Positions 40 through 42,680 of a stretch of DNA of 56,969 nt are shown piece by piece. Made by a program: the position numbers and the translations under genes. Positions within the stretch are counted from its first letter, which is position 1, and each line of letters begins with the position of its first letter. Source of the DNA: a virus (Duplodnaviria; Heunggongvirae; Uroviricota; Caudoviricetes). The notes under the pieces are model-generated. The model was not told the origin of the DNA, did no database searches, and saw only the letters and a program-made list of their open reading frames with translations. The stretch spans positions 1 to 56,969 of the IMG/VR virus record IMGVR_UViG_2740892231_000011; one strand, 5' to 3'.

Positions 40-402
40 GGGGCTGATTCTGGATTCGACGGGATTTGCGAAACCCAAGGTGCATGCCGAGGGGCGGTTG
101 GCCTCGTAAAAAGCCGCAAAAAATAGTCGCAAACGACGAAAACTACGCTTTAGCAGCTTAATAACCTGCTTAGAGCCCTCTCTCCCTAGCCTCCGCTCTT
201 AGGACGGGGATCAAGAGAGGTCAAACCCAAAAGAGATCGCGTGGAAGCCCTGCCTGGGGTTGAAGCGTTAAAACTTAATCAGGCTAGTTTGTTAGTGGCG
301 TGTCCGTCCGCAGCTGGCAAGCGAATGTAAAGACTGACTAAGCATGTAGTACCGAGGATGTAGGAATTTCGGACGCGGGTTCAACTCCCGCCAGCTCCAC
401 CA
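40..402 (+). ncRNA. ssrA: tmRNA (transfer-messenger RNA, SsrA)
   Basis: 363 nt starting GGGGCTGATTCTGGATTCGAC and ending GGTTCAACTCCCGCCAGCTCCACCA; internal tag frame GCAAACGACGAAAACTACGCTTTAGCAGCTTAA (ANDENYALAA*) at about 129..161. Matches E. coli ssrA from memory. Confidence 0.95.
372..402. repeat. att core at ssrA 3' end (left copy of 31-bp direct repeat)
   Basis: GACGCGGGTTCAACTCCCGCCAGCTCCACCA recurs identically at 41255..41285; typical 3'-end tRNA/tmRNA attachment duplication. Confidence 0.75.
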
Positions 403-570: not shown

Positions 571-1491
571 ATGAACCAACTGCAAGAAATCATTCAGATA
601 CTAAGTACTGGTGATGAAGGCACAACAAATGCTCTCATAAAAACGAAGATCCTTCTTTTCTCTATCGGGAAAAAGGAGCTTGCTGCATGGGTAAATCATG
701 AGATAAACGGTTATCCTGATTCAGTTTCCCTTCCAGATTATAGAATTGTTGGCACAAGAATTCTTGCAGATCTGAACAACGGCGTTCGCCTATATAGAGC
801 TTTTCCGTTACCGATTGGCTATCTAAGTGAAGATGACTATGAAGATGCTACAACCAGTAATGTGAGGCTTTCAATCAGTCAAATCGAAGAACTAGTAACC
901 AATGCTGGTGATAGCCATGCTCTTCAGCAGCCAATTCCTTTAGATTACGCGTTAGTTAAGTACTGCAAAGGTATCGATAAAGGCTATGAGTTAACACGCT
1001 GTTATAAAGAGATCGCACTACATAACTTTACTTCCATCTTAACTCAGGTCAGGTCACGGCTACTTGATTTTATACTTGAACTTTCTGATCAAGTTTCTGA
1101 AATACCAGATGAGAAAAACATGACAGAAAAACTCAAAAATATCGACACGTCTTCATTATTCCATAACTCAATTTTTGGAGACAATACTGTCATAAACTTC
1201 GGAAATGAAAACTCATTTTCTGTGAATAACCACGTCGTCAAAAACAACACTGAGTCATTAAAAGAGTTTCTCTCAGCTCAGGGGTTCCCTAAATCTGATG
1301 TTAACGATTTAGAAATTGCTATTGGTGAAGATGGCCCGATAGCTAACAAACGTGGTGAATATGGTCAATCTGTTAGTAAATGGTTGGCAAATATTGCGAG
1401 TAAAGCAGCCCATGGTACTTTGGGCATAGGAATAGCTGCTGCAACTCAAGCAGCTACAGCGGCTCTGAAAAAATACTACGGTCTATCATAA
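571..1491 (+). CDS. hypothetical protein (306 aa); candidate defence/abortive-infection cargo with C-terminal small-residue hydrophobic segment
   Basis: Intact ORF in an AT-rich block just inside the prophage end; C-terminus HGTLGIGIAAATQAATAAL resembles a glycine-zipper-type membrane segment; no motif I can assign to a known family. Confidence 0.55.
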   Translation: MNQLQEIIQILSTGDEGTTNALIKTKILLFSIGKKELAAWVNHEINGYPDSVSLPDYRIVGTRILADLNNGVRLYRAFPLPIGYLSEDDYEDATTSNVRLSISQIEELVTNAGDSHALQQPIPLDYALVKYCKGIDKGYELTRCYKEIALHNFTSILTQVRSRLLDFILELSDQVSEIPDEKNMTEKLKNIDTSSLFHNSIFGDNTVINFGNENSFSVNNHVVKNNTESLKEFLSAQGFPKSDVNDLEIAIGEDGPIANKRGEYGQSVSKWLANIASKAAHGTLGIGIAAATQAATAALKKYYGLS

Positions 1492-1540
1492 CCATCATGG
1501 GGTGTCGGGGGTCGGAGGTTCAAATCCTCTCGTGCGACCA
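1492..1540 (+). other. tRNA-Pro 3'-half remnant (non-functional, att-like)
   Basis: CCATCATGGGGTGTCGGGGGTCGGAGGTTCAAATCCTCTCGTGCGACCA matches the anticodon-stem to CCA portion of E. coli tRNA-Pro (proL-type, from memory) with one base missing in the acceptor arm; the 5' half is absent. Confidence 0.7.
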
Positions 1541-1555
1541 AAAATCCCTTAAGAA

Positions 1556-1580
1556 CCAGCCTATTATGGCTGGTTTTTTT
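1556..1580 (+). terminator. terminator-like hairpin
   Basis: CCAGCC-TATTAT-GGCTGG followed by a T-run. Confidence 0.45.
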
Positions 1581-2324
1581 ATGATTGTTTTTTATGCGGA
1601 GAAATACCGGGGAATAATTGGGGTAAAACACCTTTAGGCTATTCACTTAGCCTACCACCATCAAAATCTTTCCGAATGTATCCATCTCTTTTTTCTTATG
1701 CAGCTAAAACGAAGTCTTGATACTGTTTATTTACACAGATAAGAATAATACTGTCTACAAACGCAGTACAAAAGAAGTGTTATGCGTATTGAGATCTCCA
1801 TAACCAAAGACAAAATGACCAAATGCCAAATGGCGCTGTGGACGCGTTAAAGGAAGAGTTAACCCAACACATTGGCAAGCGTTATGACGATGTGGAGATG
1901 ATCGTAAAAGCCACCAGCAACGATAGTTTTTCAGTTAGACATACTGCAGATAAAGATTGAGCTAAAACTTTCGTTCAGGAAACTCTGAATGATACCTGAG
2001 AGTCTACTGAAGAGTTGTTTGTTCACTAGTTAGCACGTAGGAAATCATTCAATACTCGCACTATCGGAAGTTCACCAGCCAGTCGTAGCACGTCCTTGCA
2101 AACGACGTGCCTACAATTTCAATCACCTCTCACCATCAGTTCTATCAATAATAATTAAACAGCGCCTAGACAAAATAAATAACAACAAGTCAACAACCTC
2201 GACAGGATGCCGATGGGATGATGAAGAGATAAGAAAGAATAACCAGTAAAGCCCTAAAACGTCAGCGTTCAGACGCGTTTTTTACTTAACCGGTAACAAA
2301 TACGTTGTATCATAGCAGAATAAA

Positions 2325-4274
2325 ATGATTGTTCTAAATCAGATTAACTCCTCACTTTTGTACAATGTCGCTTACAGGTATACCATGAAATCCGAGACGC
2401 TAACTGTCCAACAACTTTTTCAAGACCGCCGACAATACTGTGTTCCATTCTATCAACGTGCCTATGTATGGACTCAGCAAGACCAATGGTCAGCTCTACT
2501 GGAGGATATCCTAGAGAAAGCACAATCCCGGCTCTCGGGTACAAAACCAACTCCCCATTTCCTTGGTGCGGTTGTACTGGAACCTCAATCAAAAAAAGGA
2601 TTATTAGGTGTAGATTCCATACATATTATTGATGGTCAGCAACGATTGACCACTCTTCAATATGTTCTGGCATCCATCCGATTAGCATTACGTGCTACGG
2701 ATCTTTCCAGCTTAGAGGCTCTCATTTCGCCTTGCCTGAAAAACTCAAACGAAGACACAATGCGAAATAAAGAAGTAGAACGCTTCAAACTGTGGCCAAC
2801 TTTTCGGGATCAAACTCATTTTATTCAAAGTTTTAATGTTGAAAATATTGACGATCTCCGGGACGTATTCTCTGATAGTTTCACGCAGCATGGTACGTTG
2901 CGTAAGCGTTTTAATCACCCGCCATCACTAGAAGCATTATGTTTTTTTACTAAAGCCTTTATAAAATGGATTAAAATAGAAAACCACTCACCACAAGAAA
3001 ATGCTGTAGCTCTAATTGAGGCTGTCTTAACAGATCTGAAACTGGTAAGCATATTTCTCGAAGCTGAAGATGATGCCCAAATAATTTTTGAAACATTAAA
3101 TGGGCGAGGGGCGGAACTTCATGCTACGGATCTTATTCGCAACTATATCTTTATGTGCGCAGAGCATGAAAATATAAATGCTATTGAATTATATGAAAAT
3201 GAGTGGAAGAGCTTTGAAGATAAATACTGGTCGGAAAAACAACGCCGTGGACGTATTAATAAACCACGCATGGAGTGGCTAGTACATGCGACATTGCAAT
3301 CAGAAAGGCAGCGTGAAATTGATCTGTCTCGCCTTTACAATGAGTATCGTGATTATGTAAGTAAGGACTTGTCTTCACAACGAGCAGATCTGCAAGTAAA
3401 GCGCCTCAAACAATATGCATTACAATATAAAGAATTGGTTGATGGTTTTGGCACAACCCCCATCTCACACTTTGGATATCGCATCGCAGACTATGATGTG
3501 ACGACACTTTATCCGCTTGCTTTGTTCATTTCGATAGCTAACATCGCTGATGATGAGAAAGCAGCCATGTATAATGATCTTGTCTCCTACGTAGTACGAA
3601 GAGCCGTATGTGGCCTGACGCCAAAGAATTACAACAATGTATTTATGAATGTATTGCGGCACTTGGCTAAAACGGAAATTTCCAGTGTTGAGTTACGTAA
3701 TATCCTCAATAACTTAAATGGCGAAGCCTCACGTTGGCCTGGTGACTCAGAATTTCTCAACGCTTGCATCAATGCTCCACTTTATCCTGGCAGGCTCGAC
3801 GCACCGAAAATGCGCTCAATGTTAACGGAACTTGAAAGAGAACTTTGTCGCCAAGTGAAGACCGAAAAGCCTGATGTTCCAAATCTTTCTAATCTCGATA
3901 TCGATCATCTTATGCCCCAAAGTTGGTATTCCTGTTGGCCTCTCGAAAATGGTCGTATGGTGACAAATTCAGATGCTACGGTATTGAACCAAATTGTTCT
4001 GTCTGGAACCGATCTTACCCCTGAACAGCTACTGGTAAGGAAACGGCAACAAGCGATAGCTACTTTGGGAAATCTAACTTTGCTTAACCTTAGCGTAAAC
4101 CGTTCTGTTCAGAATGCTGTATTTCTGAAAAAACGTGATGCTCTCATCGTCCACACCAATCTACGACTGAACATTCCACTTATAGTTAAGGATAAATGGG
4201 ATGAGGATGAAATCCTGGAGCGGGGTAAAAAGTTGGGGGAAATTGCATTGAAAGTATGGCCAAAACACGATTAA
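2325..4274 (+). CDS. GmrSD-like type IV (modification-dependent) restriction endonuclease, DUF262 + DUF1524 architecture
   Basis: N-terminal YQRAYVW and DGQQR motifs (DUF262/ParB-like NTPase); C-terminal DIDHLMPQSW His-Me finger motif (DUF1524). True start may be the internal Met at about 2385 (MKSETLTV). Confidence 0.8.
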   Translation: MIVLNQINSSLLYNVAYRYTMKSETLTVQQLFQDRRQYCVPFYQRAYVWTQQDQWSALLEDILEKAQSRLSGTKPTPHFLGAVVLEPQSKKGLLGVDSIHIIDGQQRLTTLQYVLASIRLALRATDLSSLEALISPCLKNSNEDTMRNKEVERFKLWPTFRDQTHFIQSFNVENIDDLRDVFSDSFTQHGTLRKRFNHPPSLEALCFFTKAFIKWIKIENHSPQENAVALIEAVLTDLKLVSIFLEAEDDAQIIFETLNGRGAELHATDLIRNYIFMCAEHENINAIELYENEWKSFEDKYWSEKQRRGRINKPRMEWLVHATLQSERQREIDLSRLYNEYRDYVSKDLSSQRADLQVKRLKQYALQYKELVDGFGTTPISHFGYRIADYDVTTLYPLALFISIANIADDEKAAMYNDLVSYVVRRAVCGLTPKNYNNVFMNVLRHLAKTEISSVELRNILNNLNGEASRWPGDSEFLNACINAPLYPGRLDAPKMRSMLTELERELCRQVKTEKPDVPNLSNLDIDHLMPQSWYSCWPLENGRMVTNSDATVLNQIVLSGTDLTPEQLLVRKRQQAIATLGNLTLLNLSVNRSVQNAVFLKKRDALIVHTNLRLNIPLIVKDKWDEDEILERGKKLGEIALKVWPKHD

Positions 4275-4321: not shown

Positions 4322-4524
4322 ACTCACTATTAAATACTTTAATTTGCATCAAGAACAGCAATGTCAGCCCTAGGTCTCGGACTTTGTACCGCTTATCTTG
4401 TTTTCAAAAATCAGCTCGCATCCTGCACAGTTCAGCGCATTACGTTGTAGATCTGTGTTCTGGTCATTTGTTGATACGCGTACATAGCCAATAAGCATGG
4501 TAGATCCCCCTGACAAAAGCAGGA

Positions 4525-4938
4525 ATGATGCCATTTGCTCGTTATTTCTGCATTTTCATAAACGTTGGTTTGGGAGAAGCGGCAAAACGGGATGTGGGGA
4601 CAGGGGAAAATCAGATACCGGACATGGCCTCTTTTGCCAGTGGTGATGGATGGATGAAATTACCCAACGGGAAAATCCTGCAATATGGTCGTGGTGCGGT
4701 TACGCCGACATTATCGACGCAAACAATGAGAATTACATTCAGCATCCCTTTCCCCAAAAAAGCGGACTGCGCCATGCTTACTCATTCTGGTGATGGCGGT
4801 GCGCCTTTAGGCGCTGGGCGAGGGTTCGTGATGACTGCAGAAGGCCCAACGTTAACCGGCTTTAATTCTGCTTACAGAACGTCATCAACCAGCGACACGG
4901 TATCGATGAATTACAGTTGGTGGGCTGTTGGTGAGTAA
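4525..4938 (+). CDS. orphan tail-fibre variable C-terminal segment (S'v-like)
   Basis: Tail-fibre tip-like sequence, convergent with the main fibre gene; only 7 in-frame codons upstream before a stop, so no constant part is attached. Confidence 0.45.
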   Translation: MMPFARYFCIFINVGLGEAAKRDVGTGENQIPDMASFASGDGWMKLPNGKILQYGRGAVTPTLSTQTMRITFSIPFPKKADCAMLTHSGDGGAPLGAGRGFVMTAEGPTLTGFNSAYRTSSTSDTVSMNYSWWAVGE

Positions 4939-35510: not shown

Positions 35511-36335
35511 ATGTCTCAGAACTTAGACGCAACCGCAATTAATCAAATCCATGCCCTTATTTCTGCTCAGGGTGTTAATGAAATTATCAGTAAGATTGGT
35601 GCCGATGTTGTGGCATTGCCTGAGAATTTCCGCATTCATGATCTGGAAAAATTTAATTTAAATCGCTTCCGTTTCCGTGGTGCGCTTTCCACTGCCAGCA
35701 TCGATGACTTTACCCATTATTCCAAAGATCTTGCAGATGAAGGCACCCGCTGCTTTATCGATGCTGATAATATGCGTGCTGTCAGTGTGCTTAATCTGGG
35801 TACTATTGATGAACCAGGTCACGCAGATAACACCGCCACTCTCAAACTGAAAAAGACAGCACCGTTCTCTGCACTGTTGTCTGTTAACGGCGAGCGTAAC
35901 TCCCAGAAGCCACTGGCAGAATGGATTGAAGACTGGGCCGACTACCTTGTGGGCTTTGATGCTAATGGTGACACCATTCAGGCAACCAAAGCGGCTGCGG
36001 CGATCCGTAAAATCACGATTGAAGCAAACCAGACCGCTGATTTTGAAGATAATGACTTCAGCGGCAAACGCTCCCTGATGGAGTCTGTCGAAGCGAAGAC
36101 CAAAGACATTATGCCAGTGGCATTTGAATTTAAATGCGTTCCGTTTGAAGGCCTGAAAGAACGTCCGTTTAAATTACGCCTCAGCATTATCACTGGCGAT
36201 CGTCCGGTACTGGTTCTGCGCATTATTCAGCTGGAAGCGGTGCAGGAGGAAATGGCTAACGAATTTCGTGATCTGCTTGTTGAGAAATTCAAAGACAGCA
36301 AAGTAGAAACCTTTATTGGTACTTTCACCGCCTGA
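35511..36335 (+). CDS. YfdQ-like (DUF2303) protein
   Basis: 274 aa, same length and position as yfdQ in SfV-like early-left operons (from memory). Confidence 0.55.
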
Positions 36336-36462
36336 TTTCATTACTGCAAATGCCCCTGCGGGGGCATTTATGGAAACATAATTTACTCAATAATCGCCGG
36401 ATGGTGAGGGCTTCCTTTTACCCGAATTCAGCGCGGTGCAGCGCATATACGTGGAGAACAAA

Positions 36463-36999
36463 ATGTCATTTATTAAAACTTTTTCCGGGAAGCATTTTTA
36501 TTATGACAAGATAAATAAAGACGACATCGTGATTAACGATATCGCGGTTTCCCTTTCAAATATCTGTCGCTTTGCAGGACATCTATCACACTTCTACAGT
36601 GTCGCCCAGCATGCAGTGCTTTGCAGCCAACTGGTGCCGCAGGAATTTGCTTTTGAAGCGTTAATGCATGATGCAACAGAAGCGTATTGCCAGGACATCC
36701 CCGCACCACTGAAACGACTTCTTCCTGACTATAAACGGATGGAAGAAAAAATAGACGCCGTAATCCGTGAGAAATACGGGTTACCTCCTGTTATGAGCAC
36801 GCCAGTGAAATATGCCGATCTCATTATGCTGGCAACCGAACGCCGCGATCTCGGACTTGATGATGGCTCTTTCTGGCCTGTATTGGAAGGTATCCCGGCA
36901 ACAGAGATGTTCAAAGTTATTCCACTGTCGCCAGGTCATGCCTACGGGATGTTTATGGAACGTTTTAACGAGTTATCGGAGTTACGCAAATGCGCATGA
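36463..36999 (+). CDS. HD-domain phosphohydrolase (YfdR-like)
   Basis: HD motifs (HLSHFYSVAQHAV ... LMHDATEAY); start at MSFIKTF with GGAGA RBS; 178 aa. Confidence 0.65.
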   Translation: MSFIKTFSGKHFYYDKINKDDIVINDIAVSLSNICRFAGHLSHFYSVAQHAVLCSQLVPQEFAFEALMHDATEAYCQDIPAPLKRLLPDYKRMEEKIDAVIREKYGLPPVMSTPVKYADLIMLATERRDLGLDDGSFWPVLEGIPATEMFKVIPLSPGHAYGMFMERFNELSELRKCA

Positions 37000-37611: not shown

Positions 37612-37830
37612 GTGGAGAAACATATGCTGAACCTCGATTGTGTTCCTATCTCAACTTATTGCAAAGAAACTGGCGAAACTCCTGAAGCAATAAACAAACG
37701 TGTACAGCGCGGTGTTTGGCGTGAAGGTGTTCAGGTTTTAAAGGTTGAAGGCGTTAAGGAGAGGTGGATTGATCTTAGTGAGGTTGCAAAATGGGCCAGA
37801 CAAAACTGCTCAAACTACCGCGCGGCGTAA
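37612..37830 (+). CDS. excisionase-like protein
   Basis: Small basic protein directly upstream of and overlapping the integrase start. Confidence 0.45.
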   Translation: MEKHMLNLDCVPISTYCKETGETPEAINKRVQRGVWREGVQVLKVEGVKERWIDLSEVAKWARQNCSNYRAA

Positions 37831-38987
37831 CAATCAGGAAACACCGCCAGGGCGAAACGATCAATATAACTTTCACCTACAAAGGAGTTAAATGTCGTGA
37901 GCCTCTTTCCAATCTGGAAGTAACACCAAAGAACATTAAATACGCCGAGCGCACACTCGGCGAAATTCATAATAAGATCGAAAGGGGAACATTCATTTAT
38001 GCGGAATATTTTCCCCGTTCTGCTCGTTTGAAAATTTTTGGTAATGCTGCTGCAGGCAAAACGGTAAAAATGTACCTGGACGAATATCTTGAAATCTGCG
38101 AAACGAGAAAACTCTCACCCTCAACGATTGGTGGTTATAAAAAATGCCGTAGTGCGTTAGCCTCACTCCACATTTGCCCTGCAAGTGAATTAACACCAGC
38201 AATCCTGAAAGCGTGGATTCAAAGTCAGAAAACGACCTTAAAAACAATTCGCAACCAGTTATCTTTCCTGCGGTCAGCACTTGATGAAGCCGTAACCGAT
38301 GGGGTACTTCAAATTAACCCCGTATCGTTGGTAACTGCTTCGCGCTACCAAAGTGATAAGTCAGAAGCAGAAAGTTGCTACGTGGTTGATCCGCTATCAC
38401 CAACAGAAGTTGATGCATTACTAGCAGCAGCCGGAAACAAACAATGGGAGAATCTGTTCCGGTTCGCTATACATACAGGCCTGCGTAGTTCTGAATTATG
38501 TGCCCTTAGATGGCGTGATATCGACTTTGTTGGAAAAACTGCCCATGTCCAGAACGCAAGTGTTGTCGGTGTTATCAAAGGAACAAAGACAAAAGCCGGT
38601 ACTCGTAAAGTTGAACTGACAGAAGAGGCAATGTTGGCGCTGATAAACCAGAAGCCATTTACATTCATGAAGGATGCTACTGTCTTTGAAGATCCAAAGA
38701 CAAACAAACCGTGGGCCAGCGCCGATGCGATAAGGAAAAAAGCGTGGATACCAACCTTGCGTAAAGCTGGTATCCGGTACCGTAACCCATATCAGACCAG
38801 GCATACATTCGCCACCAGCCATATCAGCCGTGGTGCGAACCTGTTCTGGCTTGCAGCTCAAATGGGGCATAAAGGGCCGGAAATGCTTTTCAGGCATTAT
38901 GGTTCGTATCTCGTAGACTATGATGGCAAGACAGCTTGTAAGGACCAAGTATCAAAAAATCCGGAGAACATGAAAATTGAGAAGTAA
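37791..38987 (+). CDS. int: tyrosine integrase (lambda-type with arm-binding N-terminus)
   Basis: 398 aa; C-terminal catalytic region with R...HTFATSHI...LGH...Y-type motifs; positioned near the att repeat at 41255. Confidence 0.85.
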   Translation: MGQTKLLKLPRGVTIRKHRQGETINITFTYKGVKCREPLSNLEVTPKNIKYAERTLGEIHNKIERGTFIYAEYFPRSARLKIFGNAAAGKTVKMYLDEYLEICETRKLSPSTIGGYKKCRSALASLHICPASELTPAILKAWIQSQKTTLKTIRNQLSFLRSALDEAVTDGVLQINPVSLVTASRYQSDKSEAESCYVVDPLSPTEVDALLAAAGNKQWENLFRFAIHTGLRSSELCALRWRDIDFVGKTAHVQNASVVGVIKGTKTKAGTRKVELTEEAMLALINQKPFTFMKDATVFEDPKTNKPWASADAIRKKAWIPTLRKAGIRYRNPYQTRHTFATSHISRGANLFWLAAQMGHKGPEMLFRHYGSYLVDYDGKTACKDQVSKNPENMKIEK

Positions 38988-39177: not shown

Positions 39178-40443
39178 ATGTTGATTGAGTTTACAGTACA
39201 AAACTATAAATCTATTTCAGAGAAACAAACACTGAGTTTAGTTGCATCAAAACTTAACGATTTGCCTAATAATCTGTTCAGTATTGATGAACCTAAATCT
39301 CTTGAATTGCTTAAAAGTGCTGTGATTTATGGCCCTAATGCTGCCGGAAAATCAAACATTATTAACGCTATTACAACTATGGCTGAACTTATTGTCCGGT
39401 CTGCTACAGGTTATAAAAGTGGTGATAAACTTGATATCACGCCTTTTAGACTAGACTCAAAGAAGATTAATCAACCATCTGAATTTGAAATTAACTTTAT
39501 TTCCGAAGGCATCAGATACCAGTATGGTTTTTCTGCAACAGAAGATTTTATTCACGACGAATGGTTATTTGCATTCCCCAAAGGCAGACCACAAAAATGG
39601 TTTTTACGTCTATGGGATGAAGAAAAACAAACCCATGAATGGGAGTTGGGGCCATCGTTGACAGGAGAAAAACAAACATGGTTGAAATCAACTAGGCCTA
39701 ATGCGCTCTTTCTTTCTACAGCGGTACAATTAAACAGTGTACAACTAAAACCTGTATACGATTGGTTTTATTACAAAGTTAAATTTACTGAATTAACAGG
39801 TTGGGATAGTGATTACAGTGCAAAGCAATGCTTAAATGATAAGAAAGATGAGATTCTCAATTTTTTAAAAGCTGCCGATGTAGGTATTGATGACATTCAT
39901 GTAACAAAGGAAAAATTCAATCCCAATGCTCTTCCTGATGATATGCCTGCAGCCATCAAGGAACTAGTGATTAAGAATATGCAAGGCAAGGAAGAATATG
40001 TCATTAAAACACTTCATAATAATGAGGCTGGAGAGCCAATTCCATTCGATTTAAAAGATGAATCGCATGGAACTAGAAAAATCTTTAGTTTCGCGGAACC
40101 CTTATCACATTCACTCGAGACAGGAAACATCCTGTTTATTGATGAATTAAATGATAACTTACACCCCAAATTAGTTGAGTTTATTGTAGGTTTGTTTCAC
40201 GATAAAAATATCAATAAGAATGGTGCCCAGTTAATCTTTACAACTCATGAGACGTCTATTTTAAATCAAGATGTTTTCAGACGAGATCAGATTTGGTTTG
40301 TAGAAAAAGACAATTCAAAGCAAACAAATCTTTTCCCACTTACGGATTTTAGTCCAAGAAAAGGAAGGGAGAATTTAGAAGCTTCTTATCTTGACGGTAG
40401 ATATGGGGCTTTACCACTCATTGGGAAATGGGAGAGATATTAA
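39178..40443 (+). CDS. AAA/ABC-type ATPase, AbiLi / RloA-like
   Basis: Walker A GPNAAGKSN near the N-terminus; Walker B-like ILFIDELNDNLHP; AT-rich; start of the next gene overlaps its stop. Confidence 0.7.
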   Translation: MLIEFTVQNYKSISEKQTLSLVASKLNDLPNNLFSIDEPKSLELLKSAVIYGPNAAGKSNIINAITTMAELIVRSATGYKSGDKLDITPFRLDSKKINQPSEFEINFISEGIRYQYGFSATEDFIHDEWLFAFPKGRPQKWFLRLWDEEKQTHEWELGPSLTGEKQTWLKSTRPNALFLSTAVQLNSVQLKPVYDWFYYKVKFTELTGWDSDYSAKQCLNDKKDEILNFLKAADVGIDDIHVTKEKFNPNALPDDMPAAIKELVIKNMQGKEEYVIKTLHNNEAGEPIPFDLKDESHGTRKIFSFAEPLSHSLETGNILFIDELNDNLHPKLVEFIVGLFHDKNINKNGAQLIFTTHETSILNQDVFRRDQIWFVEKDNSKQTNLFPLTDFSPRKGRENLEASYLDGRYGALPLIGKWERY

Positions 40444-41129
40444 TGGGAAGCGAAGATCTGTTCAAAAAAAGAAAGGCTCGGCGTAATAATGAATTCAAAC
40501 GAGTTAGTAAAGCACGAGCTCAAATGAAGAAAATTCTCATCGTCTGTGAGGGAGAGAAGACTGAGCCCGCATATTTTACAGATTTTATAAAACATTGCCG
40601 TATAAGCACGGCAAGCATAGTTGAGATTTCTGGAGAGTGCGGCTCAAGCCCTATGAATGTGGTATCTTGGGCAAAAGAAAAATATAATACGGAAAAGAAA
40701 AGGAGCGACCCTTATGATAAGGTTTATTGTGTCTTTGATAGAGACGCTCACCCTAACTATGATGAAGCTCTTAGCAGGATTAATTCCTTAAATCCAAAAG
40801 GGATTTTTGTTGCTATAACTTCCATACCATGTTTCGAGTACTGGCTGATACTACATTTTGGATACACCCGAAAATCATTTTCACCTCAGAAAGGCAAAAG
40901 TGAAGGCGCACAAATGCTAGCTGAGTTAAAAAAATACATGCCAGATTATGAGAAAAAGGCATCAGGTGTATTTAATAAATTGCAAGATCGGCTCGATACG
41001 GCATTAATCAATGCTAAAAGAGTCGAAGATGCCGCCAAAAAAGACGGGTCGATAAATCCTTCAACTAAAGTTGGCGCTTTGATTACAGATCTAATTAACA
41101 TTCGTGATGACTTTGAAAATGAGAAGTAA
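40428..41129 (+). CDS. RloB-like protein (AbiLii-like partner)
   Basis: KILIVCEGEKTEPAYF motif characteristic of RloB-like proteins as I recall them; operonic with the ATPase. Confidence 0.6.
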   Translation: MGEILMGSEDLFKKRKARRNNEFKRVSKARAQMKKILIVCEGEKTEPAYFTDFIKHCRISTASIVEISGECGSSPMNVVSWAKEKYNTEKKRSDPYDKVYCVFDRDAHPNYDEALSRINSLNPKGIFVAITSIPCFEYWLILHFGYTRKSFSPQKGKSEGAQMLAELKKYMPDYEKKASGVFNKLQDRLDTALINAKRVEDAAKKDGSINPSTKVGALITDLINIRDDFENEK

Positions 41130-41254
41130 AAATAACATGTCATGATGTAGCGACGGCAGCATGTTTAAGTTCAAATGGCAAAGTGTACGCGAAGTATACG
41201 CGAATCAAAAACAATAGAAAAAACGTATATTTTACAAAAGATTATATAAATTTT

Positions 41255-41285
41255 GACGCGGGTTCAACTCCCGCCAGCTCCACCA
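41255..41285. repeat. att core (right copy): attR of prophage 1 / attL of the IntA-type element
   Basis: 31-bp exact copy of the ssrA 3' end GACGCGGGTTCAACTCCCGCCAGCTCCACCA. Confidence 0.8.
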
Positions 41286-41408: not shown

Positions 41409-42680
41409 ATGGGACCCACTAAGAAGGGTCCAAAAACCGAGGGTCCCAAAATGGCAAAAATCGCTAAGAAGCTCACTGACACTGAAATCAAAAGCACCAA
41501 GCCAGCCGATAAAGAAATCAACTTGTTTGACGGTGATGGTCTGATTCTACGAATCGCTCCTTTGGCGAAAGGAGGCAAGAAAAATTGGTATTTCAGGTAT
41601 GCAGTACCAGTGAGCAAGAAAAGAACCAAAATGAGCCTTGGGACATATCCTCACCTTACCCTTGCAAGAGCCAGAGCCTTACGTGATGAATATCTCTCCT
41701 TTCTGGCAAATGGTGTTGATCCCCAAATCCATAACAACGATAAGGCGAAGGCATTAAAGAGTGCTACTGAGCACACTCTCCAAGCCGTAGCGCGGAAATG
41801 GTTAGATGAGAAGGTAAAGACATCAGGTATCTCACAAGACCATGCAGCAGACATCTGGCGCAGCTTAGAGAGAAATGTCTTTCCCGGTCTGGGTAATGTC
41901 CCTATCAATGAGATCCGACCTAAGCTCTTAAAACAACACCTTGATCCTATTGAGCAACGAGGCGTATTGGAAACTCTACGCCGTATCATTTCACGTCTGA
42001 ATGAAATCTTCCGGTGGGCAGCTACTGAAGAACTTATTGAGTTCAACCCGGCTGACAACCTTGGTCAAAGATTCAGTAAACCAAAAAAGCAAAATATGCC
42101 TGCCCTTCCCCCAAGCGAATTGCCAAGGTTTATGGAATCTTTGACGAATGCGTCAATCCGGTTGGAAACACGTATGCTAATTGAATGGCAATTGTTGACA
42201 TGGGTTCGTCCGGGTGAAGCCGTTCGCGCAAGGTGGTCTGATATTGATACAACCAACAGCATTTGGAACATTCCTGCTGATTTCATGAAAATGAAAAAGC
42301 TTCACAAAGTTCCTTTGAGTAAAGAAGCTTTGCGCATCCTTGAATTAATGAAATCAATAAGTGGGCATAGAGAATGGGTTTTCCCCAGCATAAAAGCGCC
42401 TCTTAATCATATGCATGAACAAACAGCCAACGCAGCTATCATCCGAATGGGGTTCGGAGGCGAGCTTGTAGCTCACGGTATGCGTTCTATTGCACGAACA
42501 GCGGCAGAGGAGTCTGGTAAATTCAGAGCTGAAGTTCTTGAGGCAGCGCTTGCCCACTCGAAAAAAGATGAAATTATCGCAGCATACAATCGTGCAGAAT
42601 ATCTGATAGAGCGACAGAGTTTGATGCAATGGTGGAGTGATTACGTTCAAGCTCAAAGATCAAATGCTCTGGTAGCCTAA
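41409..42680 (+). CDS. tyrosine integrase, IntA/P4 type (ssrA-specific family)
   Basis: N-terminus KLTDTEIKSTKP...LFDGDGLILRI resembles CP4-57 IntA; C-terminal catalytic domain; likely start at MAKIAKK near 41451; adjacent to the att repeat. Confidence 0.85.
   Translation: MGPTKKGPKTEGPKMAKIAKKLTDTEIKSTKPADKEINLFDGDGLILRIAPLAKGGKKNWYFRYAVPVSKKRTKMSLGTYPHLTLARARALRDEYLSFLANGVDPQIHNNDKAKALKSATEHTLQAVARKWLDEKVKTSGISQDHAADIWRSLERNVFPGLGNVPINEIRPKLLKQHLDPIEQRGVLETLRRIISRLNEIFRWAATEELIEFNPADNLGQRFSKPKKQNMPALPPSELPRFMESLTNASIRLETRMLIEWQLLTWVRPGEAVRARWSDIDTTNSIWNIPADFMKMKKLHKVPLSKEALRILELMKSISGHREWVFPSIKAPLNHMHEQTANAAIIRMGFGGELVAHGMRSIARTAAEESGKFRAEVLEAALAHSKKDEIIAAYNRAEYLIERQSLMQWWSDYVQAQRSNALVA

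Follow-up and report, generated by a model that had tools for sequence, protein, structure and literature searches.

AbiTii is a classical name in the abortive infection (Abi) field, and its mechanism is still unknown; a 2026 review says the same of AbiT and notes that escape mutations against lactococcal AbiT lie in the gene for the major capsid protein and in early phage genes (PMC13064643). The definition of the AbiTii domain goes back to Anantharaman et al. (2013), who described an α+β domain of about 180 residues that occupies the N terminus and has a highly conserved glutamate (PMC3710099). Lactococcal AbiTii contains this domain, and in other bacteria it precedes a HEPN RNase domain of the c2405 or Ymh family; the same authors proposed that such N-terminal domains contact phage components and that the C-terminal domains kill (PMC3710099). 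The Bab/Agp proteins of Escherichia coli prophage hotspots contain a Gly/Asn-containing amyloid motif and a helical death domain of about 80 residues (bioRxiv 10.1101/2024.11.07.622273). Here, we analyzed a stretch of 56,969 nucleotides (nt) of a Caudoviricetes virus (IMG/VR record IMGVR_UViG_2740892231_000011, positions 1 to 56,969; the whole stretch is called the window below) and, within it, a gene at positions 571 to 1491 of the + strand that encodes a 306-residue protein with an N-terminal AbiTii domain. Our preferred reading, which we put forward as tentative, is that this gene is the first cargo gene of a prophage integrated in ssrA and specifies a stand-alone AbiTii-family Abi protein, in which an AbiTii sensor would be coupled to a non-enzymatic C-terminal output.

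RESULTS

The protein carries an N-terminal AbiTii domain

The open reading frame (ORF) at 571 to 1491 (+ strand) is intact from ATG to TAA and has a G+C content of 38.9%, compared to 48.6% for the window and 50.9% for the body of the prophage. An earlier note on this DNA had described it as an intact, AT-rich ORF, and this description holds. The start codon is right, since the N terminus aligns with those of more than 100 homologs, and comparison with two orthologs gave ratios of nonsynonymous to synonymous substitution (dN/dS) of 0.11 and 0.14, indicating purifying selection that constrains both halves of the protein. By these signs, it is a real, functional gene. The product is named "AbiTii domain-containing protein" in RefSeq (WP_001072750.1), and NCBIfam has no model for it. 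Our homolog search found 305 proteins, and nearly all of the 120 that were listed are about 304 to 306 residues long.

Pfam PF18864 (AbiTii) matched residues 4 to 192 (positions 580 to 1146, + strand) with 116.1 bits (cutoff, 27.6; E=3e-33) over model positions 3 to 184 of 189, and the AbiTii model of PADLOC matched the protein with E=4.4e-33. The protein thus shows what characterizes the family, namely, a match over most of the length of the model and an N-terminal α+β domain with a conserved glutamate (E44). In view of these two matches, the RefSeq name, and the 305 homologs, it is neither an orphan nor a protein whose N-terminal 250 residues match nothing, as had been claimed. Among 112 sequences, the invariant residues of the domain are K26, W40, E44, G47, Y48, P55, R58, R163, L164, L165, and F167. 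AlphaFold modeled residues 1 to 176 as a mixture of helices and strands, and the predicted local distance difference test score (pLDDT) of the blocks was mostly 85 to 93 between approximately residues 40 and 170 and lower (73 to 77) in places within residues 1 to 40 and past residue 170 or so. The model of the domain had no neighbor in the PDB, and a sequence search for relatives of solved structure gave none with an E value below 0.26.

A second conserved module behaves as an exchangeable unit

Because the homologs keep the full length of 303 to 306 residues, residues ~193 to 306 represent a second conserved module. This two-domain architecture is retained at full length across Gammaproteobacteria (Enterobacterales, Vibrio, Psychrobacter, and Kangiella), Betaproteobacteria (Burkholderiaceae), Alphaproteobacteria, Nitrospira, Desulfobacterota, and others. 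The module starts with a linker and a motif rich in glycine and asparagine (residues ~193 to 225; positions 1147 to 1245, + strand), which was delineated by conservation as D..LF..sIFGDNTvInfGneNsfsVnN and has the consensus LFNNAIFGDNTTIxxGxxNxQxVxN across homologs. F197 and G211 are invariant in this G/N-rich motif, and G203 and N205 are nearly so. Despite this conservation, AlphaFold was unable to place the motif (pLDDT below 50 at residues 204 to 224), and six of 34 members gave weak, subthreshold matches to the β-roll family PF21300. Four consecutive helices are predicted by AlphaFold for the remainder (residues 227 to 236, 241 to 254, 266 to 281, and 288 to 303; positions 1246 to 1488, + strand), which ends in YYG. 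When the C-terminal module was predicted alone, its helix blocks had pLDDT values of 81 to 95, most of them above 90, and we read the four helices as a compact four-helix bundle. Besides F197 and G211, the invariant residues of the module are L234, L247, D254, and W271.

The module occupies the position that HEPN effectors take in other AbiTii proteins. A HEPN identity was nevertheless rejected, because the module has no invariant His or Arg; among 34 members, only one gave a HEPN match, at E=0.28. Furthermore, given that no enzyme-like residues are conserved, the module is most likely non-catalytic.

We then compared a profile of the module to 1.84 billion cluster representatives, which recovered 1862 proteins. 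Most of the best 150 of these are about 300 residues long and carry the module at approximately residues 188 to 303, as does the query family, and AbiTii was present in all four proteins of this layout that were scanned with Pfam. In four other proteins (P0149, P0212, P0240, and P0247), the module lies behind N-terminal regions without an AbiTii match, and at least three unrelated N-terminal regions precede it. Neither Pfam nor PADLOC has a family that matches the non-AbiTii regions. An intact ORF for P0149 was found on two independent contigs, and a profile of the N terminus of P0212 and P0240 returned only those two proteins. Since it occurs behind unrelated N-terminal regions, the C-terminal module behaves as an exchangeable unit. 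Genes encoding the module alone were also considered, and both short matches that we checked turned out to be truncations, one at a contig end and the other after an ISL3 insertion.

The C-terminal helix does not resemble a classical membrane helix

The last of the four helices contains a G/A/T-rich stretch, HGTLGIGIAAATQAATAAL, at residues 281 to 299 of the E. coli allele. The earlier note had seen in it a glycine-zipper-like C terminus and a membrane or amphipathic helix, and had suggested transmembrane prediction as a check. The best 19-residue Kyte-Doolittle window reached 1.01 (family mean, 0.98; range, 0.49 to 1.53), and the conventional level for a transmembrane helix over such a window is about 1.6. 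A strict GxxxG was found in 6 of 112 homologs and a triple small-xxx-small pattern in 32 of them, so that the zipper belongs to the E. coli allele and does not characterize the family. Additionally, position 287 is a glutamate in 62% of these homologs, and the last helix of distant members, WKVGTDVAAKVLTEA, contains Lys, Asp, and Glu. AlphaFold placed this helix with a pLDDT above 90 as the fourth of four consecutive helices. Small residues form a conserved stripe at positions 289, 291 to 293, 296, and 298, as expected for tight helix packing. Hydropathy, the rarity of GxxxG, the charged residues, and the placement by AlphaFold thus make a classical membrane helix unlikely, and the glycine-zipper and transmembrane readings were abandoned.

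No conserved partner gene and a patchy, mobile distribution

The gene was detected in 40 of 5426 complete E. coli genomes and never on the plasmids of those genomes. An identical segment is present in 7 complete E. coli genome records, and CFT073 has a version that is 96% identical. In several E. coli records (H48 to H52, e.g., TW11681), the match starts only at nt 53 and the annotation gives two hypothetical proteins, so that these lineages apparently have a disrupted or split gene. The orthologs linked to ssrA are 49% (Yersinia), 77% (Citrobacter), and 60% (Pseudescherichia) identical.

To look for a partner, all ORFs within 6 kilobases (kb) of the gene were compared by all-against-all BLAST in 39 loci, fetched with flanks of up to 8 to 10 kb that were shorter in several cases. 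No conserved partner gene emerged, as no neighbor family was common to more than 5 of the 39 loci. The gene is therefore a stand-alone unit, and its distribution is patchy and mobile. No transfer RNA (tRNA) or transfer-messenger RNA (tmRNA) gene was present in the fetched stretch of 27 loci, and 4 loci have one within 400 nt of the gene. Among the 144 immediate neighbors, we found matches to restriction-modification systems, Mrr, DUF4145, Shango, Olokun, BrxH, and PD-Lambda-3.

The settings of individual homologs are diverse. In one further E. coli, the gene has an STM2766/2767 helicase pair downstream and SMEK and AAA+S8 peptidase genes upstream. The Pantoea homolog lies beside SocA/Panacea and DUF4145 genes at the edge of a P2-like prophage, and the Kangiella homolog belongs to a tRNA-Ser-linked islet. 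In Vibrio cholerae, a homolog with 38% identity (locus L005, 8001 to 8915) is part of a same-strand array of short genes with ParDE, Phd/ParE, and DUF645 cassettes, which, from the gene layout alone, looks like the chromosomal superintegron. The IncFII conjugative plasmid NZ_CP019904.1 (locus L062, 5905 to 6825) encodes a 306-residue paralog with 28% identity over both domains. It directly follows a pair of genes for an AAA-family ATPase and an ATP-dependent helicase (Gabija-like by annotation), and tblastn gave similar matches on other Klebsiella and Enterobacter plasmids. Such a stand-alone, mobile, and patchily distributed gene is consistent with a defense gene.

The gene is the first one inside the ssrA junction

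The tmRNA gene ssrA was identified at positions 40 to 402 (+ strand) by ARAGORN and Rfam (RF00023, 295.8 bits), and its 3' end forms the attL core. Because its last 38 nt (365 to 402) recur at 41248 to 41285 (+ strand), where they form attR, positions 403 to 41285 correspond to an E. coli prophage of about 40.9 kb integrated in ssrA. The AbiTii gene, which starts 168 nt past ssrA at the left prophage end, is the first gene inside the junction. It lies inside the att repeats, has a deviant G+C content, and is followed by a terminator (1551 to 1578), in line with attL-proximal prophage cargo (a "moron"). The proposed location at the prophage edge, directly inside the ssrA junction, was therefore correct.

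Conserved GGAC-type repeats and the block AAAAAGGATACGCAAAGGAGCCGCGGCTC lie in the attL arm between ssrA and the gene (403 to 570, + strand). The arm also includes the strong terminator hairpin of ssrA (approximately 531 to 557; -18.8 kcal/mol, z = -4.65), whose end precedes the ATG by 14 nt. A search of the + strand in 403 to 570 for sigma-70-like promoters gave none. The region is conserved in Citrobacter (88.8%) and partly in Yersinia, the same layout of a terminator without a promoter is found in both, and the distance from ssrA to the ATG is 166 to 171 nt in Yersinia, Citrobacter, and Pseudescherichia. Since no promoter lies between the ssrA terminator and the ATG, the gene is probably expressed at a low constitutive level in the lysogen by read-through from ssrA.

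Downstream, the 3' half of a proL-like tRNA-Pro(GGG) (1492 to 1540) starts directly at the stop codon (1489 to 1491), exactly as the earlier note had stated, and is followed by an intrinsic terminator hairpin (1551 to 1578) and a T-run; the whole element spans 1492 to 1585 (+ strand). Positions 1495 to 1548 match the 3' part of K-12 proL with 98% identity (55 nt by BLAST), from the anticodon arm to the CCA and 8 nt beyond, with a 1-nt deletion in the acceptor strand. proM was rejected as the source, the fragment resembling proL. By BLAST, fragment and terminator are 91 to 92% identical over 87 to 89 nt beside three orthologs (L012, 8926 to 9014; L016, 10926 to 11013; L017, 10925 to 11011). The whole 94-nt downstream flank has 84 to 88% global identity, compared to just 66 to 71% for the coding DNA of L012 and L017. 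The non-coding flanks, that is, the attL arm and the tRNA-Pro element, are thus better conserved than the coding DNA of the gene itself.

Gene and fragment have been co-inherited in four enterobacterial genera, including Citrobacter, Enterobacter, and Pseudescherichia. In Yersinia, the gene occupies the same position at ssrA without the tRNA-Pro fragment, and in one E. coli lineage the fragment is degenerate. The conservation of the flank beside the orthologs identifies the fragment as an old, co-inherited part of an enterobacterial module. By itself, the fragment does not show that the gene was acquired from a different island. The variable cargo begins directly past the tRNA-Pro fragment, and fragment and hairpin are probably both the terminator of the gene and a recombination boundary for that cargo. 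An islet bounded by a second copy of the fragment was considered and rejected; the window contains no second copy.

Overall, the AbiTii gene is the conserved element of the prophage edge, and what comes after it varies. It is followed by prophages with Mu-like baseplate genes in Yersinia and Citrobacter. Downstream of the gene, CFT073 has ynaM, ydfK, and an invertase, and Citrobacter has the invertase directly.

Other defense genes surround the attachment site

The gene next to the tRNA-Pro element is a DinI-like pseudogene (1782 to 1999, + strand), frameshifted and with an internal stop, according to the RefSeq annotation of an identical strain and a PHROG DinI match. A GmrSD-family type IV restriction enzyme (2325 to 4274, + strand; Pfam GmrSD_N and GmrSD_C; PADLOC mREase_IV, 1410 bits) lies 0.8 kb downstream of the AbiTii gene. 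It adjoins a truncated Pin/Hin-type invertase on the minus strand (4370 to 4534). In CFT073, ynaM, ydfK, and an intact invertase take this place, so that GmrSD appears to have come in by a replacement insertion that truncated the tail-fiber invertase.

At the other end of the prophage, an AbiL-type pair (39178 to 41129, + strand) sits between the tyrosine integrase (37791 to 38987, + strand; PHROG integrase, E=1.5e-60) and attR. It is composed of AbiLi, an AAA_21 ATPase (39178 to 40443; PADLOC E=4e-101), and AbiLii, a RloB protein (40428 to 41129; PADLOC E=3e-29), and Pfam matched both AAA_21 and RloB. In the circular phage, the order would be integrase, AbiL, attP, AbiTii gene, tRNA-Pro fragment, DinI-like pseudogene, GmrSD, and tail fibers. 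The AbiL pair adjoins the AbiTii gene across attP, and the two prophage ends therefore form one defense hotspot. With GmrSD 0.8 kb away on one side and AbiL across attP on the other, the cargo or defense position that the earlier note had assigned to the gene is supported.

Near the integrase end, we also observed a DUF2303 protein (35511 to 36335) and a weak match to a YfbR-like 5'-deoxynucleotidase (36436 to 36999). Directly past attR, there is a second integrase (41409 to 42680; P4/CP4-57-like by PHROG), indicating that two elements are stacked in tandem at ssrA.

DISCUSSION

Because its N-terminal domain is an AbiTii domain, a role in abortive infection is our best guess for this gene, and the earlier suggestion to this effect is kept on that basis. 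We propose that the AbiTii domain would recognize a phage cue and that the C-terminal module would act as the output. Phage-triggered self-association, driven by the G/N-rich motif, could then turn the small helical bundle against an essential cell function, which would be damaged or blocked, so that the infected cell would cease to support phage growth. Both the split into sensor and effector and the non-enzymatic action are what we infer from conservation and modularity. The earlier description of the locus is thus retained in part. Its intact edge ORF, tRNA-Pro fragment, prophage-edge defense position, and Abi role stand, the last as a best guess; the orphan and glycine-zipper labels and the membrane helix do not, and the fragment alone does not show an origin from another island.

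Several points weigh against this proposal. No phenotype is available for this subfamily, and of the three papers mentioning AbiTii that our literature search returned, none deals with this architecture. The C-terminal module (residues ~193 to 306) has no Pfam, PDB, or fold match. The gene was absent from the 50,697 sequenced phage genomes that we searched, and the 144 neighbors include many housekeeping genes, the defense matches among them being counted without a statistical baseline. The G/N-rich motif might have no other role than to bind a ligand or to pack against the N-terminal domain. As to expression, the argument for read-through from ssrA draws solely on the absence of a consensus promoter. 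Finally, the roles of sensor and effector could be reversed, as K26, E44, Y48, R58, and R163 of the AbiTii domain are invariant.

In this reversed arrangement, the AbiTii domain would be the active part, possibly as an enzyme or a nucleic acid-binding domain, and the C-terminal module a regulatory appendage serving oligomerization or sensing. Those invariant polar residues and the "highly conserved glutamate" of the domain (PMC3710099) speak for it, as does a C-terminal module nearly devoid of invariant polar residues. We nevertheless consider it unlikely, since elsewhere AbiTii precedes HEPN RNases, which are effectors (PMC3710099), and since the C-terminal module is joined to N-terminal regions of several unrelated kinds, a pattern that a shared output domain would show. 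A different output is conceivable as well, in which the small-residue helix would be a glycine-zipper membrane helix that kills infected cells by permeabilizing the inner membrane. The G/A/T-rich stretch of the E. coli allele and the conserved small-residue stripe would fit, and Bab is an example of how membrane-active helices can be concealed within a small helical bundle (bioRxiv 10.1101/2024.11.07.622273). However, with a best hydropathy of 1.01, a strict GxxxG in so few homologs, a frequent glutamate at position 287, charged residues in WKVGTDVAAKVLTEA, and a confident position as last of four consecutive helices, this mode of killing appears improbable. Even more speculative, and a long shot in our opinion, is that the G/N-rich segment (IFGDNTxIxxGxxNxQxVxN) is a self-templating, amyloid-like β-arch switch between AbiTii and the bundle. 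Phage sensing by the AbiTii domain would then expose the segment, the proteins would polymerize through it, and toxicity would come from the clustered helical bundles. The logic of Bab/Agp or HET-S would thereby be packed into a single protein, and the same cassette of switch and bundle would be reused behind several unrelated sensor domains.

The protein could also serve the mobile element rather than defense, be it as an addiction or toxin-like module, in superinfection exclusion, or as a factor for integration into or excision from ssrA. This would be in agreement with the fixed distance of 166 to 171 nt from ssrA in four enterobacterial genera, with non-coding flanks conserved above the coding DNA, with the toxin-antitoxin cassettes neighboring the V. 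cholerae homolog, and with the copy on a conjugative plasmid. However, the family also occurs away from prophages, tRNA genes, and ssrA (27 of the 39 loci have no tRNA or tmRNA gene), no antitoxin-like partner is adjacent, and all other known occurrences of the N-terminal domain are in Abi-type proteins, which makes such a function distinctly unlikely. We thus favor, tentatively, the stand-alone Abi protein with an AbiTii sensor and a non-enzymatic output.

As it stands, the gene is an annotated member of a domain family in a typical place. The subfamily nonetheless comprises about 1,800 cluster representatives from many phyla, in which an AbiTii domain and an exchangeable C-terminal module are combined in one polypeptide with no partner. 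Being a single polypeptide, it offers a simpler handle on AbiTii sensing and growth arrest than the two-gene lactococcal system. If proven toxic, the C-terminal module would represent a new type of non-enzymatic effector. The locus is also of interest in that one prophage concentrates three defense functions around its attachment site, and its layout suggests that cargo genes can draw on the promoter of ssrA, which is very strong.

Comparison with known systems

Like AbiT of Lactococcus lactis (Bouchard et al. 2002, as reviewed in PMC13064643), the protein described here is encoded on mobile DNA, and a role in abortive infection is expected for both; its N-terminal 190 residues fall in the Pfam family that is named after AbiTii. 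The lactococcal system, however, needs two genes (AbiTi and AbiTii), whereas no partner is conserved here in the 39 loci. In the window, the gene is flanked by the ssrA junction and the DinI-like pseudogene, with no AbiTi-like partner, and among the 25 PADLOC families listed for the 144 neighbors, the only AbiT-system model is AbiTii. Lactococcal AbiTii is reportedly 213 residues long.

The C-terminal module already exists as an unnamed family of phage proteins, since phrog_16090 (PHROG, function not assigned) matches residues 184 to 306 with E=6e-76. That profile, however, has only 123 positions. Its source is probably gene calls that were split or cut short, and it says nothing on function.

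The fusions of AbiTii to HEPN domains (c2405 and Ymh; PMC3710099) are similar in that an N-terminal AbiTii domain and a helical C-terminal domain of about 110 to 130 residues are joined in one polypeptide, and both architectures are found in E. coli, including CFT073. However, the HEPN domains of the fusions are marked by a conserved His in c2405 and by an Rx4-6H motif in Ymh, whereas the module described here has no invariant C-terminal His or Arg and contains an additional G/N-rich motif.

In the Bell/Babybell and BASS pairs, the same amyloid motif is found on two adjacent products, unlike in our lone gene, whose motif (residues 201 to 222) is conserved, has a pLDDT below 50, and gives weak β-roll matches in 6 of 34 members. 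Bab/Agp share with the AbiTii gene a location in E. coli prophage defense hotspots and the combination of a helical domain of about 80 residues with a conserved Gly/Asn segment of about 25 residues (here, residues ~201 to 225 within the linker and motif region of ~33 residues); the Bab segment was shown to form an amyloid. There are also clear differences. Two proteins share the motif there, compared to one protein with one copy here; motif and helical domain follow each other in the opposite order; and Bab has five helices, the first of them hydrophobic, instead of four helices of which none is hydrophobic. The likeness is thus one of format, without demonstrated similarity in sequence or fold. 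Nevertheless, this shared format makes an oligomerization switch in the C-terminal module a testable idea.

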